Below, piece by piece: positions 42,224-60,730 of a stretch of DNA of 64,000 nt. The translations under genes were made by a program, and so were the position numbers. The notes beneath the pieces were generated by a model that saw nothing but the letters and a program-made list of their open reading frames with translations, ran no database searches and was not told the origin of the DNA. Every line of letters begins with the position of its first letter. Within the stretch, counting starts at the first letter, position 1. Location of the stretch: the NCBI GenBank assembly GCA_000004985.1, contig GG738846.1. One strand, 5' to 3'. The stretch is from Naegleria gruberi. Taxonomy: Eukaryota.

Positions 42224-45200
42224 ATGTTTCTCACCAAGCTAAGGAGGGGTGGAAGTAAGGATGAAGCAACATCGCCCTTAGGATCATCTTCACCTTCCTC
42301 TGCTGCTACCTCTTCTAGTAACAATGTTGGTGTAGTGTCCTTTCTGAATAGAACGTTGGGGAGATCAACTAGTAATAAGGACATTGGCGTGGTTGGTAGT
42401 ACTAGCCCAGTTGAAAATTCCTCACCATTAACACTTCAAAGGAGAAAGCCAACAGGTTCTCCTAATGGAGGAGGTGTATCGAGTGCTACTTTTACCTCAA
42501 CACCCAAAAGAACAAATTCTACCAATGATAGAACCTATTCAATGGACGATTCAATAACAACCACTCACGAATTGGTTGAAGATGGTGAGGATAAGAGAAA
42601 GATTCTTGATGAAGAGGAAAAGGAAAGGCTTAAAATTCAACAAGCCCAACAAATGTTTAATTCTCTGATGCAACAATCCGTATACAAACAAATCATGGAA
42701 GAAGATAGATATGTAAGTGTTTTCAACTGTTATTTAAACAAACTGAATATTAAAAAATGTAAAGACGAGCGATCAACGAGCCCTTCACTTGTCGGATTCA
42801 CAAATTCAAGAGGAAATTGATTTGTTAATTGGAAAAGATTGGGAATCAAAAAAAGGAAAACAAGAATGTGAATTGTTTAGAAAGAATATGAGCTTGTGAG
42901 TTTTGATATGCTTTTTTATTCAATAACAATGATCCTCAATTATTATTTTATAATAATCATGATGATGCTATGTAATTATAGAGCAAGATTATTTCGAGAA
43001 AAACAAACAACTCAATCAGTTCTACCTCCTATCTATGCAACATCAGATCCACCACCTTCAAAATTCAAAGGCTCATTCATGTGTAAAGTAAATTTACATT
43101 TCAAAGATGATTCCGATCCTACCTTGAAACGTATGGTAAAAACTGTACATTGCAATGGTGAAATGTCTGCAGATGATTTTGCTGAATTCTTTATTAACAA
43201 GTTAAATTCAGCCTATTTAACAAAACGAAGGAAGGAAGAGTGGTTTTTTAAAGCCACTGGAGCTGCCGAGTACATGTATGGAGATACTAGAATGATTGAT
43301 TTTGAGCACATTAGAAACTGTATAAACAAAGAAATACCTATAGAACTAACATTGATGGATAAAGAAACCATTGAGAAGGAATCAGATCCAATGGATGTCC
43401 ACCTTAAAAATATAGAGTATGACCTTACAAAGCAATCGAGTTTTGAATCTATTGATAGTGATGAGTTACATTTTTGTGGAGATAATTGGAATTCAATGAA
43501 GGGAATCAGTCTATGGGATTTGCATCACAGAAAGTTTAAGATAAAAATAATAGGAGCAGATAACGTTATTCCAAATATATTCCACAAGAACTCTTCCACA
43601 ATTTCTTTCAAGCCACAGGAGACCTCAACATATGTTATGATAGATTTATATCATGGAGGTTTATTATTGGCCAGAAATTTCACCAACTCAGTAGCATATT
43701 CTAGATATTTGAGATGGAATGAAAACATTGAATTTCCTCTCAGAATATCAGATTTACCTAGAGAAACCAAGATTTGTATTACTATTTTTGTAAAACCATA
43801 CAAGAAGGAAGAAACTCCTTCGAAAGGAAACAATTTCAAAAAGCACGTACCATTGGCCTATGTCAATTACAAGATCTTTGATTATAATGAAAAATTCTTG
43901 AATGGACTTAGATCTTTGAGAATGTGGCCAAATGAGGCTCACGAACCATCCAATGCCTGTGTTGAAAATGTTGGACTAGGAGCACTGGCTGACGATGACG
44001 CGCCTTGTGTTTTCACATACTATATAGAAGAATTTGTGAAACCTGTATATTTCCCAACTAATTGCATTCCTGGGGAATTATTTTTCAATTCCTATGTTGA
44101 ATATGAAAAGAGTCAAAGGGAAATATACAAGGCAATTCCAGAGGATCAATTGATGGAGTATTTAGAACAAGTTTTATCGGAGAGTCCCCTTAAACTTCCA
44201 ACAGATGAAGAAAAATGGAGATTGTGGGAAGCCAGAGAGATTTTGAAAAAAAATCCAAAAGCCCTACCAAAAGTAATGTTGAGTGTTCCTTGGCAATACC
44301 CATATGCTGTCTATCTGGCCCATTCAATAATACCTAAATGGAAAGAGCCAGAAACCTTGGATGCAATCGAGTTGCTTGATTTTAATTACAGTAGCGAACA
44401 TGTGAGAAGATATGCATTGAAATTGTTGGATAAGCTACCAGATAATACGTTTGCTGATTTTGTATTACAATTAGTACAAACTCTCAAGTATGAATTATAT
44501 CACGATTCTCCACTCTCTAGGTATTTGCTAAAGAGAGGCTTGAGAAGCACTCACATTATTGGACATATTTTATTTTGGCACTTGAAGGCAGAAATGCACG
44601 TGCCTTACATTAGAGAACGATATGGTATAATATTGGAAGAATATTTGAGAAATTGTGGAGGTCACAGAAGAGAGCTATTGAAACAAAGTGGTATTGTAGG
44701 TCAATTGTACTCAATTGCAATGAAAGTTAAGGAGGCCAAATCTGAAGACCATTTGAAGGTACTAAGAGAAGAGCTATCCAAGCTAAGACATCCTCCAAAA
44801 TTTACTCTTCCACTCAGTCCAAAGATGGAAGTCAAAGGTGTATTGGTTGATAAGTGTAAGGTTATGGATTCCAAAAAGTTACCGCTTTGGCTTGTTTTTG
44901 AAAATGCTGATGAAACAGCAGCTCCTGTATTTGTAATGTTCAAAGCTGGTGATGATATCAGACAAGATTTGCTTACACTTCAAATGCTCAAGATTATGGA
45001 CAAGTTGTGGAAACATGAAGGCCTCGATCTACACATGCAACCATATGGTTGTGTATGTTTGGGTGATATGATTGGTATGATTGAGATTGTTCTCAACAGT
45101 ACTACCATTGCAAAGATTACTGGTAAAGCTTTGCATGCCTTCTCTGATGAACCAATATACAATTGGCTAAAGTTGCACAACACAACAGATAATGAATGGA

Positions 45201-45712
45201 TTACAGCTGTGAATAACTTTGCCCTTTCAAGTGCAGGCTATTGTGTTGCAACGTATGTGCTTGGTATTGGTGATAGACACAATGATAATATCATGGTAAC
45301 AAAGAAAGGAGACTTATTCCACATTGATTTTGGTCACTTTTTGGGTAACTACAAGAGTTTCCTATTATATAAAAGAGAAACAGCACCATTCGTATTCACT
45401 ACAATGTATGCCTATGTGATGGGAGGTGAAGGAAGTACAAAGTATATTGAATTTTCAGAGAATTGTTGTGCGGCTTACAATATTATCAGACAGCACGGAA
45501 AGTTACTCATTAACTTGTTTTTACTAATGCTTGCAACAGGTATTCCAGAATTGAGATCTTCAAATGATGTAAAATGGATTGAAAATTGTTTAAAGTTGAA
45601 AGGAACAGACGAAGAAGGTTCTGCTCACTTTAGAGAACAATTAAAGAAGAGTCTCAGCAATACCAAGACAAATATCAACAATGCACTCCATATTATTGCC
45701 CACCAAAAGTAA
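42224..45712 (+). CDS. Class I phosphatidylinositol 3-kinase catalytic subunit (RBD, C2, helical, kinase domains) with a low-complexity N-terminal extension; three exons
   Basis: Exons are 42224-42712, 42765-42895 and 42982-45712. Intron 42713-42764 is GTAAGT...AAAG. Intron 42896-42981 is GTGAGT...TATAG and joins in phase 2 (TT+A). Total is 3351 nt, 1116 aa. RBD-like: ...FMCKVNLHFKDDSDPTLKRMVKTVHCNGEMSADDF... Kinase: ...GDDIRQDLLTLQMLKIMDKLW..., ...LGIGDRHNDNIMVTKKGDLFHIDFGHFLGN... Confidence 0.75.
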
Positions 45713-46040
45713 TGTAAATATTAATGTGGCATTCATTAGAATAATAAAATAATTTATTGTTATGATTGACATTACATTCATAAATTGAATTGCGCACATA
45801 CGAAGTAATCTTAAATTGAAATCCACTCGGACTAAACATAAAGTATTTTTAGCACCCATTCTTCTATTTATATTAAAAACAAGACTTCCCAACTGCCAAT
45901 TTTAGCAAGTCTATTAAAAGAATTCATATTCAGTTTCAACTCAATCTTGAAAATGAAAGCAAGTGAATGAATATAAAACTGATCCCTGCAATCCTTTGAA
46001 TTCAAAACAAAAACAAACAAGCAAACTCAACAACGCAAAC

Positions 46041-47678
46041 ATGAAAAATCCAATTAAGATTACAATTGAAAGTTTAACACTTTCATTTGGAAAGAAGAGT
46101 CTATTCGACGAATTGGATTTCTCACTCTCAAGAGGTGATAAAGTGACCCTAGTGGGTGAGAACGGATGTGGCAAAACCACATTTCTTCGTCTATTGAATA
46201 GTACGCAACAACAAAATTCGAATTCTGAATTATTCGAATATACAGGATTGATTGAAATAGAGGGAAAGATTGGTTTCTTACCTCAACATTTTGAAGATAT
46301 CACCAATCCTAATGAACCAACAATTATCACTATGCTCAAATTCTTCCCTGACTCTGATATTCAACAATTTCTAGATCAACCTTTACAACCACTTTCTGAG
46401 GAATGGTACAATGAATTGAATTCTCTTATTGGAGATGAAATTTATCAACAGACAAAACTTCTAGGATTGAATAACGATTTATTGGAGCAAGAATTTGAAA
46501 GTTTGAGCGGTGGAGAGAAAACCAAGTCAATTCTGTGTGCATTAAGTATTGTGAAACCTGACATTTTATTATTGGATGAACCAACGAATCATCTTGATGT
46601 TCAGGGAATTGAATGGCTGGAGAATTTCTTAATGGAATATGATGGAGCAGTCGTGATGGTTACTCACGACAGAACTTTGATTAATTCAGTTTCTAATAGA
46701 ATTTCAGAACTTTCACCTCATACGAAAAAGTTTGTCCACTTTAGAGGTGGCTATGAAAACTATCTTGCTCAGGAGGAAAAGAAACGTCAGAGAGCCATTC
46801 AAGAACGTGAATTCCAAGAAAAGGAATTGAAAAATCTGAAACAAAAGTCAATTCAAATGGCCTCTTCAATGAAAGCCAGAAAATTGAGAGATCCCAAAAA
46901 TAGGGATAAAATCAGTTACAATAATCAGGAAGAAAGAGTTCACAAAGGTACTTCCAAGGCGTTTAATCAAATTACGAGAAAGCAAGAGTACTTGCTCGAG
47001 AACAGAATAGATTTAATTCAAGAACGAAACAAAATTTCATTCGAATTTGATGAAAATTCTGTTTCATCCTCGTTGTGCATTGAAGTTTCTGATTTGACTA
47101 AATCCTTTGCTCACAAACCACTTTTCCAAAATGTTTCGTTTACTCTAGTGAGTGGTGATCGATTGATTATTCAAGGTCCAAATGGTTCTGGCAAGACAAC
47201 CTTAATGAATATTCTGATGGGATTGACAGAATCTGACAGTGGCACTGTTACTATCAGTAAGCATGCCAAGATTGGATATTTGGATCAGGAACAAGAAAAT
47301 CTGATACTTGACAAGTCAGCAATTGAATTATTGATGGAAGATTCTAGCATTCAAGCAACAAAACAAAAGATTATCAGTGAATTGTGTAATCTTGGAGTTT
47401 ATACTTGGCATGACTTGAATTCACCATTGAAATCATTGAGTATTGGATGTAGAAGAAAGGTACAATTGTGTAAAATAATCATGCAAAAATGCTCAATTTT
47501 GGTATTGGATGAATTGACTAATCATATTGATTTTCCTAGCTTGGAAGTGATTGAGGAAGCATTGATGAATTTCCCTGGAATTATCATTGCAACTTCACAC
47601 GATAGATATTTCACAGACAAAATTGCAACCGATATTATCAATCTTGAAGATTACTCAGAGTTCAACAATGATAAATAG
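46041..47678 (+). CDS. ABC-F family ATPase (two tandem ABC nucleotide-binding domains, no TMs)
   Basis: The ATG at 46041 (MKNPIKITIESLTLSFGKK...) lies downstream of the track's non-ATG start. NBD1 has a Walker A (GENGCGKTT) and ABC signature (LSGGEKTK). NBD2 has a Walker A (GPNGSGKTT). Walker B motifs are LLLDEPTNHLD and LVLDELTNHID. Confidence 0.75.
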   Translation: MKNPIKITIESLTLSFGKKSLFDELDFSLSRGDKVTLVGENGCGKTTFLRLLNSTQQQNSNSELFEYTGLIEIEGKIGFLPQHFEDITNPNEPTIITMLKFFPDSDIQQFLDQPLQPLSEEWYNELNSLIGDEIYQQTKLLGLNNDLLEQEFESLSGGEKTKSILCALSIVKPDILLLDEPTNHLDVQGIEWLENFLMEYDGAVVMVTHDRTLINSVSNRISELSPHTKKFVHFRGGYENYLAQEEKKRQRAIQEREFQEKELKNLKQKSIQMASSMKARKLRDPKNRDKISYNNQEERVHKGTSKAFNQITRKQEYLLENRIDLIQERNKISFEFDENSVSSSLCIEVSDLTKSFAHKPLFQNVSFTLVSGDRLIIQGPNGSGKTTLMNILMGLTESDSGTVTISKHAKIGYLDQEQENLILDKSAIELLMEDSSIQATKQKIISELCNLGVYTWHDLNSPLKSLSIGCRRKVQLCKIIMQKCSILVLDELTNHIDFPSLEVIEEALMNFPGIIIATSHDRYFTDKIATDIINLEDYSEFNNDK

Positions 47679-53079: not shown

Positions 53080-53689
53080 TATTAGTTTAGAATAATTTTA
53101 GCAACTATCATCAGAGAACTATTCATCAATCCCAATTTCTCCCTCCACATTTGTTGTGTAGTGTCTGAGAGAATGAATTGAAATAGATTTTACTGAGATA
53201 GTTTAATTGCACCAGTCAATCATGATATAGCTGGATTTAAGGATCATGAAACCAATCTAAACAAAACCACTTGTAAATAACAAATAAATAACTCTTTAGA
53301 AAACCTTTGAGAACCTTCTCCACTGATTTCCATCAAAATTTAATTGACAGAGTATCGAGCTCAGCTGGTCATCAACTTATTTCCTATCATGAATTCATCA
53401 GCCACACCAATACAGCTCACCTTCCAAGAAATGATCTAGCTCTCCTCATCCACACTCTTAAGAGCAAGCAAATAAATTTGCAACGCACGTTTAAATGTTC
53501 TTCTAATCTTCACAAGTTAAAAATAAAATAGTAATCGAAATCGAAACAAATCGTGATGGGAAGTCACGAATTTGCACAAATCTATTTTCACATGTGAAAA
53601 CATTTTCAAGCTATTTAAACTCTCAGTATTCTCAACTCTCTATCTTCCAACACAAAAAAAACAATACAACCCTAACACACTCTAACAAA

Positions 53690-54658
53690 ATGCAAACAAC
53701 TCAACTCACTTTCGATCAAAGTAAATCCTCAATTCTCGTCTCTTTAGATAAGAAGAAATCTGATCAACATTGTAAACTTCTTTTGGAACAACTTGTTGGA
53801 AAGTTTCAATTCAGAAATAACAAATATACCTTCAGTGGATCATATGATCTTGCACAGTGGTTGGTTCTCTCTTTTGATTCAATGGTTAAGGAAGATGAAA
53901 AGTTTTTCACAGAGATTGTCATTCCAATAGTTGCATACATTTCAATTGTGGATGATGCTTGTGATGAGAAGATTACTGACATGTCTATTGCAGAGATGAA
54001 AGAACATTGTAAGATATTTAGAGGAGAAACAGTTCATGCTTCTCACTCTGCTCTCAAGATGGGACAATTTGTGTACAATCTAATCAGGGAAGAAAGATTC
54101 GAATGTATTAGAAGAAAGGTTTTGGAATTCCTGGTGACTGGAACTAATCTAATTGAAAAGGCAAAAAATAATAATGGACCAATCACTGAAGAAATATTGG
54201 CTAACTTTTTAGAGGAAAGAAGAATTGACTCCATGGCCTCTCTTTTCTTTACTATCAACAATATCTTTAACAAGATTCCATTAGAAATTGAAAGATGCGA
54301 TAATGTGCTCATTCAATATAATCACATGGCATGTGATACGATAAGTTTATTGAATGATGTTGCCTCCATTGCAAAAGATACCCAAAAGAAACTTGTCAAC
54401 AATTATGTAATATTGAATAAGGGAATGAAAGAGAACTTATCGTACAGTGAATTGAAACAACTCCCAATTGAAGCATTTGAATCTTCCGTGAATGAAGTTT
54501 TAGAATTAATCAATGCTAATTTGTTTCAAATGCAAACTATCAAATCCTCCAATCCATCCTTCTCCACACAATTCGGTTCAATCGATGAGGTCATGAAGGG
54601 ATACTGTAATTACAATCTGCAATTACAATATCAATTTTTTCTTTTGATAATATCTTAA
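53690..54658 (+). CDS. Candidate microbial-type class I terpene synthase (TPS-like), about 322 aa
   Basis: The track ORF starts at GTG 53594; the first ATG is 53690 (MQTTQLTFDQ...). An Asp-rich metal-binding motif IVDDACDE (DDxxD/E) sits near residue 88. An NSE/DTE-like triad LLNDVASIAKD ((N/D)DxxSxxx(E/D)) sits near residue 222. An Arg pair (ERRID) lies 46 residues upstream of it, the usual position of the pyrophosphate-sensor Arg. The length is typical of bacterial, fungal and social-amoeba TPS. No clear RY dimer is seen. Confidence 0.45.
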   Translation: MQTTQLTFDQSKSSILVSLDKKKSDQHCKLLLEQLVGKFQFRNNKYTFSGSYDLAQWLVLSFDSMVKEDEKFFTEIVIPIVAYISIVDDACDEKITDMSIAEMKEHCKIFRGETVHASHSALKMGQFVYNLIREERFECIRRKVLEFLVTGTNLIEKAKNNNGPITEEILANFLEERRIDSMASLFFTINNIFNKIPLEIERCDNVLIQYNHMACDTISLLNDVASIAKDTQKKLVNNYVILNKGMKENLSYSELKQLPIEAFESSVNEVLELINANLFQMQTIKSSNPSFSTQFGSIDEVMKGYCNYNLQLQYQFFLLIIS

Positions 54659-54802
54659 TGATTGACTTAATATCTCTTTCAAGAACAAAATATATCAAAA
54701 AAACTATTTCTACATGTCAATTTCTTTGAAGCGTTTTGCAAATTAAAGAAAAAATTAGATAGAAAAAGCTTGAATCTTTTTTGAGAAATTCAATCAAAAA
54801 AA

Positions 54803-56350
54803 ATGAAAAAAAGTCTTGCTCTCATTCGTCGTGCCGCTCTCTCCTCTCAAAAACAACAAGTTTCTGCCTTTAGAGGTGTCGGTGCCACACACATTCCTTG
54901 TTTGACCCAACAAGTGAGAGTAATGAATAATATTTATCAACAATCACGTTTCTTTTCTCAACATCAAATATTCTCCGAAGCAGAGCAGAAACAAGAAACT
55001 CCATCAGCAACAACACCAGCTGCTGAGGGACATCACTTATTAATTGATTTGGATGCTATTCGTTCAACACCAACTGAAGAGAGTTATCTTGAACATGTTA
55101 GCAAGATTATTCAGGATGGAAATAGTTTAATTCAAAAATTGGAAGGTTCTGCTAGTAAATTTAATATGAAAGGAGATGTAGGTGTTGTTGAAATTGAATT
55201 ATTCTCTTATAATATATTATTCTATTTTGTGTAATTCTAGGAAACACCATTGACCAAGATTGCCGGTCATTCAATTCCAAAGGAAATCTGGGATATTGTT
55301 AATGCTCTCCTTCAAAGAACATTTTTATATGTTCACATCTTTTCAAATGTTGAGAATGCAAAGAGTGACTTGGAAAAGTTAAAAACCATGTATGAAAGAT
55401 TAAATTTGATTGTCATTGTCAATAGTCAACATGATGCCAAGAAGGAAAATGATGAAACTGAAACTGAATATGAAATGGTTCAACGTTTACAACACACTAT
55501 CAAGTTGATTGAAAAGGAAAATGAAGTTTATGAAATTACAAATACTCTCATGGATTTACAAAGACGTAGTATGGAAATTGTTCAACCTACTGAATTTGAA
55601 CCATCAAGCAATCCTTTGGAAAATCAAATTTTGGAAGAAGCTTACAAAAAGCAAGACGCATCTTTGGAAAATCCAGGAATTGAAGAAATTAGAATCAAGG
55701 TTTTGGAATTATTGGAACGTCGTTATCATATTTATACCGAGTTTGGAAATGCTAAGGAGGCCCACACTGATTTGTGTAATGCTATTGAACTTTTGGAAGA
55801 AGACATTTTAAAGTTGGAACAAATTGAAGGAGTTGATCCTGAAAGATTGGAAAAGAGAAAATTATGGGTTGCTCGTCTCCTTGTTGATCGTGCTGAATTG
55901 TACTTTACCTTCTTGCACTCACTCTACCAAGGACCTCAAATTGAGGAATCTCTCGACAAGTCATTGACTCAAAAACAAAGAGCTGAAATTGTTCTCGAAG
56001 ATATTCACAGTAAGATTACTCAATTGGCCGATATGCTTGGTATTGAAGATGAAGATTTGAAGAATCCATCTCAATCAGCCTCCAAGAATGTTTCCATTGT
56101 AAAGGCAACCAAATATCAAGTTGAAGCTGACAATAGAATGAAGAGTGATCTCCAAGGTGCCATCAAACATGATCCAAAGATTTCTGAACATCACACCTCC
56201 TTCGCTACCATCCAAGATTTCATGAAAGAAATTGGAGATAAGAGAAAGAGAGCTGGTTTCATTTTGAGATTTATCATCATCTTCTTTATCATTTTTACTG
56301 TGGGTAATATTGTTTACATGAAGAGTAAGTCTGATTCTGAAAAGAAATAA
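54803..56350 (+). CDS. Protein with a mitochondrial presequence, a helical repeat region and a C-terminal tail anchor; two exons
   Basis: Exon 1 is 54803-55177, intron 55178-55240 (GTAGGT...TCTAG, phase 0), exon 2 55241-56350. The N-terminus MKKSLALIRRAALSSQKQQVSAFRGVGATH is presequence-like. The C-terminus is ...RKRAGFILRFIIIFFIIFTVGNIVYMKSKSDSEKK (TM plus basic tail). Confidence 0.55.
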
Positions 56351-59513: not shown

Positions 59514-60730
59514 ATGAGTTTATTGTGGACGTTCATGTTGCAACCCATGTTGGTGATTGGTAGTGCTCTATCAGTGGTTCACTTACTTCACTACTTGTTT
59601 ATTCAAAGAAAAAAGATGAAACATTCAATGGAAGGAAAAACTGTTTTAATTACTGGAGGATCGACTGGTATTGGATTAGGTAGGTGTTTGTAATGGTGTT
59701 GAATCATTCCGATCATGATGATTATTTTGAATATTATATTTAATAATAATATTATTATAATATTGTATTTATAACATTAATTGTATTTATTGTATTTAAT
59801 AATGATGATGAAATTTTAAAATAATATATAGGTATTGGTATTGAATGTTTAAAACAAAAGGCTAAAACATTGATTATTGTTGCAAGAAATCAAGAAAAAT
59901 TGGAACAAGCAAAGAAGGAATTACAAGAATATTGTAAAGGAAAGCAAGAAGTTATTATTCATTCATGTGATGTTGGTGATGAGGATCAAGTTGACAAGAT
60001 GATTGAACATTTATATTCAAGTGCTATTGAAAATGTTGATTATTTATTTATTAACCAAGGATTGTCAATTCCAGGATATATTCTCTCACAAAAGATGGAG
60101 GATTTCAAATATCAAATGAATTTGAATTATTTCAGTCATGTCATGCTTTCAAAGAAATTTATTCCTAAAATGATGGATTTGGAAGCTGCTAGTGGTGGAG
60201 CATTTGATAGACATGTCATTTTCGTTGGATCAGCATGTTCAATTGCATCATTTGTTGGATATGGATCTTATTCACCAACCAAGTATGCTATTAAGGGTTA
60301 TGCTGAAGCTCTTCGTAATGAATTATTGGGAACTAATATTAGAGTTCACTTGGCTTTACCTGTTGATACAGATACTGAAGGATTCAAGAAGGAAAATGAA
60401 ACAAAACCAAAGGAATGTGCAATCTTGTCAAGTCTCTCTGGATTACAAACCTATATTGAATCAGGTTCAATGCTTGTAAAGAATTTATTGAAATCTTCCA
60501 TTCAATTCTATGTCATTTCCTCATTCGACACCTACCTTCAAATTGTTGGAGCTACTCTTGGTGTAGGACCATGTGTAAATAGATTCAACTATCCAATGAT
60601 TGATATGTTCACATCAAGTTTATTCATTCCTTCTGTCATTTTGAGAAGTATTGCCTATTATTTCGATCATGTAAGTGAAAAGGCTGCACACACTCATAGA
60701 AATGAAATTTTCAAACAATTACAAAAATAA
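59514..60730 (+). CDS. KDSR: 3-ketodihydrosphingosine reductase (KDSR/Tsc10, SDR family), two exons
   Basis: Exon 1 is 59514-59679, intron 59680-59831 (GTAGGT...TATAG, phase 1), exon 2 59832-60730. The N-terminal TM precedes ...[45 protein letters not shown]... The region ...VIFVGSACSIASFVGYGSYSPTKYAIKGYAEALRNELLGTNIRVHLALPVDTDTEGFKKENETKP... matches human KDSR ...[65 protein letters not shown]... Confidence 0.8.

Follow-up and report, generated by a model that had tools for sequence, protein, structure and literature searches.

A class I terpene synthase homologue of Naegleria gruberi whose coding sequence ends before the conserved C-terminal segment

NAEGRDRAFT_61874 of the heterolobosean amoeboflagellate Naegleria gruberi (Heterolobosea) is, by profile similarity and predicted structure, a homologue of the microbial-type class I terpene synthases (TPSs), and its coding sequence is cut short at the 3' end. 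The fold is kept in residues 1-306, as are three of the four signatures that bind diphosphate and Mg2+ (DDACD, Arg177 and N222/S226/D230). Homology to all relatives ends at nucleotide 54608/54609, after codon 306 (GYC), and the last of the four signatures, the RY pair, lies beyond this point in the family. The gene is probably a decaying recent duplicate, most likely catalytically dead or strongly impaired, with the function carried by intact paralogues. Positions are those of the window, the whole 64-kb stretch of DNA that was analysed, and the features are listed in Table 1.

The open reading frame runs from ATG 53690 to TAA 54656-54658, and its product is identical (100%, full length) to an annotated Naegleria gruberi "predicted protein" (EFC49915.1 / XP_002682659.1 / UniProt D2UZB1). 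An earlier note on this DNA, made from the letters alone, had proposed a 322-aa ORF from an amoeboid eukaryote; the recomputed ORF proved identical to XP_002682659.1, and the guess about the organism was correct. The 306 homologous codons contain neither an internal stop nor a frameshift. A longer reading from GTG 53594 was rejected, since it merely reflects the mechanical listing of ORFs.

Table 1. Features of NAEGRDRAFT_61874 and of its surroundings in the window
Feature	Position	Strand	Observation
PI3-kinase	42896-45709	+	
ABC ATPase	45963-47675	+	
Oxidosqualene cyclase, 844 aa	47759-50290	-	Pfam SQHop_cyclase N and C domains; human lanosterol synthase 1w6k, E 2e-180
Lys/Glu-rich low-complexity ORF, 353 aa	52018-53079	+	directly upstream of the TPS gene; sub-threshold DUF6474 only
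Annotated CDS NAEGRDRAFT_61874	53690..54658	+	322 aa and stop; class I terpene synthase homologue
Asp-rich metal-binding motif DDACD, residues 88-92	53951..53965	+	invariant in 8/8 clade sequences
R177-R178	54218..54223	+	R177 invariant in clade; pairs with Arg of T-muurolol synthase
NSE-type triad NDVASIAKD, residues 222-230 (N222, S226, D230)	54353..54379	+	clade alignment and solved enzymes
Last homologous codons G304 Y305 C306	54599..54608	+	nucleotide identity to contig L001; protein alignment
Non-homologous tail NYNLQLQYQFFLLIIS and stop	54608..54658	+	replaces about 63 ancestral codons with W...R[FY]xHxxH
Out-of-frame MSISLKRFAN and stop	54714..54746	+	three-frame translation; faintly like WCIISKRFQ of the paralogues
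Next gene downstream	54803-56350	+	starts 144 nt past the TPS stop
Short-chain dehydrogenase	59870-60727	+	

Family, fold and binding motifs

The Pfam family PF19086 (Terpene_syn_C_2) matched residues 81-242 with 33.6 bits (E 4.1e-8), above its curated gathering cut-off of 23.7 bits, and the same cut-off was passed by all six further clade proteins scanned. Neither an NCBIfam scan nor phmmer run directly against the PDB with NAEGRDRAFT_61874 returned anything meaningful. When the PDB was searched with a profile made from the alignment of eight clade sequences, every match at E<=1e-3 was a class I terpene cyclase, among them the presilphiperfolan-8-beta-ol synthase BcBOT2 (8h6q, E 2e-6), T-muurolol synthase (9hqi, E 3.7e-6), pentalenene synthase (1ps1, E 1.4e-5) and trichodiene synthase (E 7.7e-5).

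The AlphaFold (AF2) model computed with the 8-sequence alignment had a pLDDT of 80 and a pTM of 0.81, with a confident class I fold over residues ~50-312. With this model Foldseek gave 107 PDB chains at E<=1e-3 (TM up to 0.73/0.76). The best 50 of them were without exception class I terpene synthases of bacteria or fungi, and the all-alpha terpenoid cyclase fold of the alpha domain was recovered. The earlier note had suggested a profile-HMM search and a structure prediction as checks, holding that the lack of an HMM hit or an unrelated fold would speak against its assignment to the microbial-type class I TPSs. Both outcomes were favourable to the assignment and the family homology stands, but a working synthase cannot be assumed, given the loss of the tail.

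It could be argued that the motifs occur by chance, or that they mark another family with the isoprenoid fold such as the trans-prenyltransferases, since identity to solved cyclases is just 12-16% and an earlier model, built from three sequences and poor (pLDDT 57), listed two octaprenyl diphosphate synthase chains far down among its fold matches. That same poor model still matched class I cyclases, the leading matches of the good model (the 50 best among 107) were cyclases throughout, and the Pfam match lies above the curated cut-off while no prenyltransferase family was matched, polyprenyl_synt of Pfam giving nothing even at E<=10. In addition, the protein has a single DDxxD, and in place of a second one it has an NSE triad as its other metal site. 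We therefore consider that such an explanation can hardly be right.

The metal-binding motifs are those expected of a class I cyclase. The Asp-rich motif, corresponding to the Mg2+ A/C site, lies within IVDDACDE (residues 86-93), and in the residue-level profile alignment VDDACD of the clade pairs with MDDQCDE of T-muurolol synthase 9hqi. The second motif, the NSE/DTE type of the Mg2+ B site that is usually found ~140 residues past DDxxD, is aligned with NDVLSYRKD of BcBOT2, NDVLSYPKE of T-muurolol synthase and NDIASLEKE of pentalenene synthase; its residues N222, D223, S226 and K229 are invariant across the clade, and the distance from D88 to N222 is 134 residues. Both motifs had been located by the earlier note, at about residues 88 and 222 and with this spacing, and recomputation bore it out. 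The final Asp of the triad, which had been remarked upon as departing from the usual Glu, is real and unproblematic: six of the seven distinct clade proteins end the triad in Asp, as does BcBOT2, a solved and active fungal enzyme. An Arg pair had been placed 46 residues before the triad, a miscount by one residue, as R177 and R178 stand 45 and 44 residues upstream of N222. R177 is the candidate diphosphate-sensor Arg, by extension from bacterial TPSs in general, where this residue is found about 46 residues before the triad.

The relatives of NAEGRDRAFT_61874 are few. It has two close paralogues in N. gruberi, P0002 and P0003, which are 368 and 389 aa long and share 83% and 70% identity with it. 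A HMMER search of 1.84 billion representative proteins with a profile of these three sequences found five proteins at E<=1e-3, all from Naegleria and none from any other genus. Among them are NAEGRDRAFT_52878 and NAEGRDRAFT_54762 of N. gruberi, FDP41_010467 of N. fowleri (P0010, 865 aa) and C9374_013610 of N. lovaniensis (P0011, 891 aa), which share ~20-22% identity with NAEGRDRAFT_61874. Word-indexed searches with the single sequence and with the 3- and 8-sequence profiles likewise gave Naegleria proteins only. The sole match of a scan of metagenome loci (L002, 2998-3510) was rejected: the ORF lies antisense within a bacterial gene of the LysR type and spells VSVVDDACDQ by chance. On these similarities, the clade appears to be a small and very divergent family, confined to Naegleria in the databases searched. 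The paralogues and the distant members have [IV]VDDACD, the Arg at position 177 and an ND..S..K[DE] triad in common with NAEGRDRAFT_61874; unlike it, they keep G[YF]xxWCxxSxR[FY]xHxxH and a longer C-terminus.

In FDP41_010467 and C9374_013610 the TPS domain is fused to a hydrophobic C-terminal part of ~370 aa. This part has three His boxes (HTLLH, HKTHH and HAIHH) resembling those of membrane desaturases or hydroxylases, and the UniRef name of C9374_013610 is "Fatty acid desaturase domain-containing". For the N. fowleri protein, Pfam gave no match to this part. A fusion of a TPS with an oxygenase is possible in this pathogen.

The end of the gene

In the protein alignment NAEGRDRAFT_61874 tracks its paralogues through SIDEVMKGYC (residue 306) and then continues as NYNLQLQYQFFLLIIS up to the stop, whereas the paralogues continue as TWCIISKRFQxxNHLLPEYH and extend for 60-80 more residues. 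The element G[YF]xxWCxxSxR[FY]xHxxH is found at the break site in all of the other clade sequences (7/7), and the ancestor of NAEGRDRAFT_61874 is taken to have had the tail because these seven carry it. The W...R[FY] segment of the clade was aligned with GNLYWSFQTGRY of BcBOT2 and GSYDWHRSSGRY of pentalenene synthase. Its Trp and R[FY] correspond to W308 and to the RY motif R314-Y315 of pentalenene synthase, and R[FY] also pairs with the RY of BcBOT2. From the Asn of the triad to the Arg of the pair there are 91 residues in the seven other clade sequences, the paralogues included, against 95 in pentalenene synthase. The replacement tail of NAEGRDRAFT_61874 consists of 16 unrelated codons and a stop. 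It has no similarity to any homologue, contains no equivalent of the Arg or the Tyr of the pair, and is predicted at pLDDT < 50 (residues 314-322, AF2).

The dipeptide RY is absent from the entire 322-aa protein, and no equivalent pair is present in the region ~80-95 residues past the triad, where the C-terminal RY motif is expected. The earlier note had also seen no RY motif, and this absence is confirmed. The cause, which that note had not recognised, is that the gene end carrying the motif is gone, not mere divergence. Compared with BcBOT2 (8h6q), 9hqi and 1ps1, NAEGRDRAFT_61874 is alike in its ~320-aa all-helical alpha fold, its DDxxD, its sensor Arg and its triad, which ends in Asp as in BcBOT2; it differs in ending before the W...RY segment, so that the fourth diphosphate-binding signature is absent.

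Neither blastn nor tblastn found the missing tail in any other part of the 64-kb window, and there is no second copy of the post-breakpoint sequence within it. An intron does not restore the tail either. Every GT and every AG between 54590 and 54760 was listed, and no canonical GT..AG intron in this interval rescues the frame: donor 54606 with the sole acceptor 54683 gives a TAA stop, while donor 54590 with the same acceptor is in frame but excises the perfectly conserved VMKGYC codons. Two candidate relics of the tail were rejected. The out-of-frame MSISLKRFAN (Table 1) is not significant, with no tblastn match even at E 1000, and EKFNQKK has a tblastn E of 0.33 in a 600-nt search space, which is likewise not significant.

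The breakpoint was set against the protein alignments and one environmental contig only. This contig (L001, ENA ERZ929261, 1575 nt) encodes P0013, a 90%-cluster mate of NAEGRDRAFT_61874, and its product is full length (414 aa). The contig is 95% identical to the window over 53432-54608 and 97% identical over the upstream flank 53163-53306. Counted per 100 nt, identity stays at 91-100% up to 54608 and is at random level from 54609. About 125 nt of the window at 53307-53431 are mostly missing from the contig (19 nt shared), an indel polymorphism in the 5' flank.

The contig is a mosaic. Residues 1-240 of P0013 are of the window type (231/240 identical, against 201/239 to P0002), while from residue 241 to the end the protein is of the P0002 type, with 65/66 and 63/64 residues identical. 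At the codon-240 boundary the dS between window and contig rises from 0.029 to 0.31. The dN/dS against the contig is 0.31 overall, with few substitutions, and 0.55 for codons 1-240, where it rests on just 13 substitutions. The contig is either a gene-converted allele of another strain or a chimeric metagenome assembly. Because of this mosaic structure, L001 does not prove an intact allele of the NAEGRDRAFT_61874 locus.

These observations bear on the question of whether the truncation could be an artefact of the reference assembly or of the gene model, the real gene being full length. A contig 95% identical to the window does encode a full-length product, and the truncated product is on record from one contig only. 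However, the junction lies inside contiguous sequence, with the next gene normally spaced downstream, the lost segment occurs nowhere else in the window, and L001 may itself be chimeric, its 3' part being P0002-like. An artefact of this kind seems quite improbable to us. We favour a real loss at the locus, in which a rearrangement or deletion at nt 54608/54609 would have taken away the last ~63 codons, including the conserved Trp and R[FY] pair.

Genomic surroundings

No obvious terpenoid cluster was found among the neighbours of NAEGRDRAFT_61874 (Table 1), which also include unassigned ORFs downstream. The one exception is the oxidosqualene cyclase, a triterpene cyclase of class II encoded 3.4 kb upstream of this class I homologue. 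It is probably a cyclase of the sterol pathway, and its closeness to the TPS ORF may be coincidental. A short intron near 55180-55250 apparently divides the gene at 54803-56350 into two ORFs (54803-55234 and 55250-56350), neither of which has a Pfam match.

Catalytic capacity and significance

When trichodiene, pentalenene and selinadiene synthases are in their closed state, the Arg and Tyr of the RY motif form hydrogen bonds with the diphosphate, and mutating these residues makes the enzymes much less active. The W/RY residues of characterised enzymes help to close the active site. Mutation of the RY Arg in trichodiene synthase and in other class I cyclases severely lowers activity. Intact members of the Naegleria clade have the full set of four class I signatures. 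By analogy with the family, their DDxxD and NSE triad would hold three Mg2+ through which a prenyl diphosphate is bound, and they would ionise it with the aid of the sensor Arg and the RY pair before cyclising the carbocation. Since its Trp and R[FY] are missing, we infer that NAEGRDRAFT_61874 is likely inactive or badly impaired.

There is some room for a fully functional microbial-type sesquiterpene (or mono- or di-terpene) synthase, in which the 16-residue tail is tolerated or substitutes for the lost segment. The ORF is intact, the DDxxD, the sensor Arg and the NSE triad are all conserved, the class I fold is predicted with confidence over residues ~50-312, and dN/dS against L001 is below 1, from few substitutions. 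The missing Trp and R[FY] are, however, invariant in the seven other clade sequences, the new tail is poorly predicted and brings no substitute for the pair, and mutants of the RY Arg are severely weakened in class I cyclases; we thus regard full function as unlikely. Another possibility is that Naegleria has a private, divergent TPS clade in which the truncated copy still works without Trp and RY or has a non-catalytic role, and to this we give only a small chance. Loss of function in a recent duplicate remains the reading that we prefer. What the sequence displays is truncation and not decay itself, as the ORF is otherwise undamaged and its dN/dS is below 1.

Genes of this kind, and their presence in N. 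gruberi, are already known. For "another amoeba Naegleria gruberi", PMC6902781 used the TPS sequences of Chen et al. 2016 (PNAS 113:12132), and in its tree they group with the dictyostelid TPSs and PpolyTPS1/4, nearer to the fungal TPSs. The novelty implied by the earlier note was therefore overstated, as such sequences already stand in published TPS phylogenies. Dictyostelid and Physarum TPSs (Chen et al. 2016 PNAS; PMC6156593; PMC6902781) have been expressed and make sesquiterpenes and monoterpenes. The Naegleria genes are likewise microbial-type TPS genes in amoeboid protists; the products of the dictyostelid and Physarum enzymes are demonstrated, whereas the Naegleria clade is known here from sequence and model. 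To judge from the profile search, the relationship between the two groups is remote, because no protein from outside Naegleria was obtained at E<=1e-3. In the literature searched we found no biochemical assay of any Naegleria TPS and no mention of the NAEGRDRAFT_61874 accessions, and the truncation of this copy appears to have gone unremarked.

NAEGRDRAFT_61874 adds little as a new gene, since both GenBank and UniProt already list the protein and its TPS Pfam domain is precomputed there. With its RY-bearing C-terminus missing, it is unfit to be taken unchecked for expression or into counts of functional TPSs. Any terpene synthase function in N. gruberi would then lie with P0002 and P0003, which are intact and are better expression targets than this copy. 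The fusion of a TPS with a membrane domain in the pathogen N. fowleri may merit a separate look.
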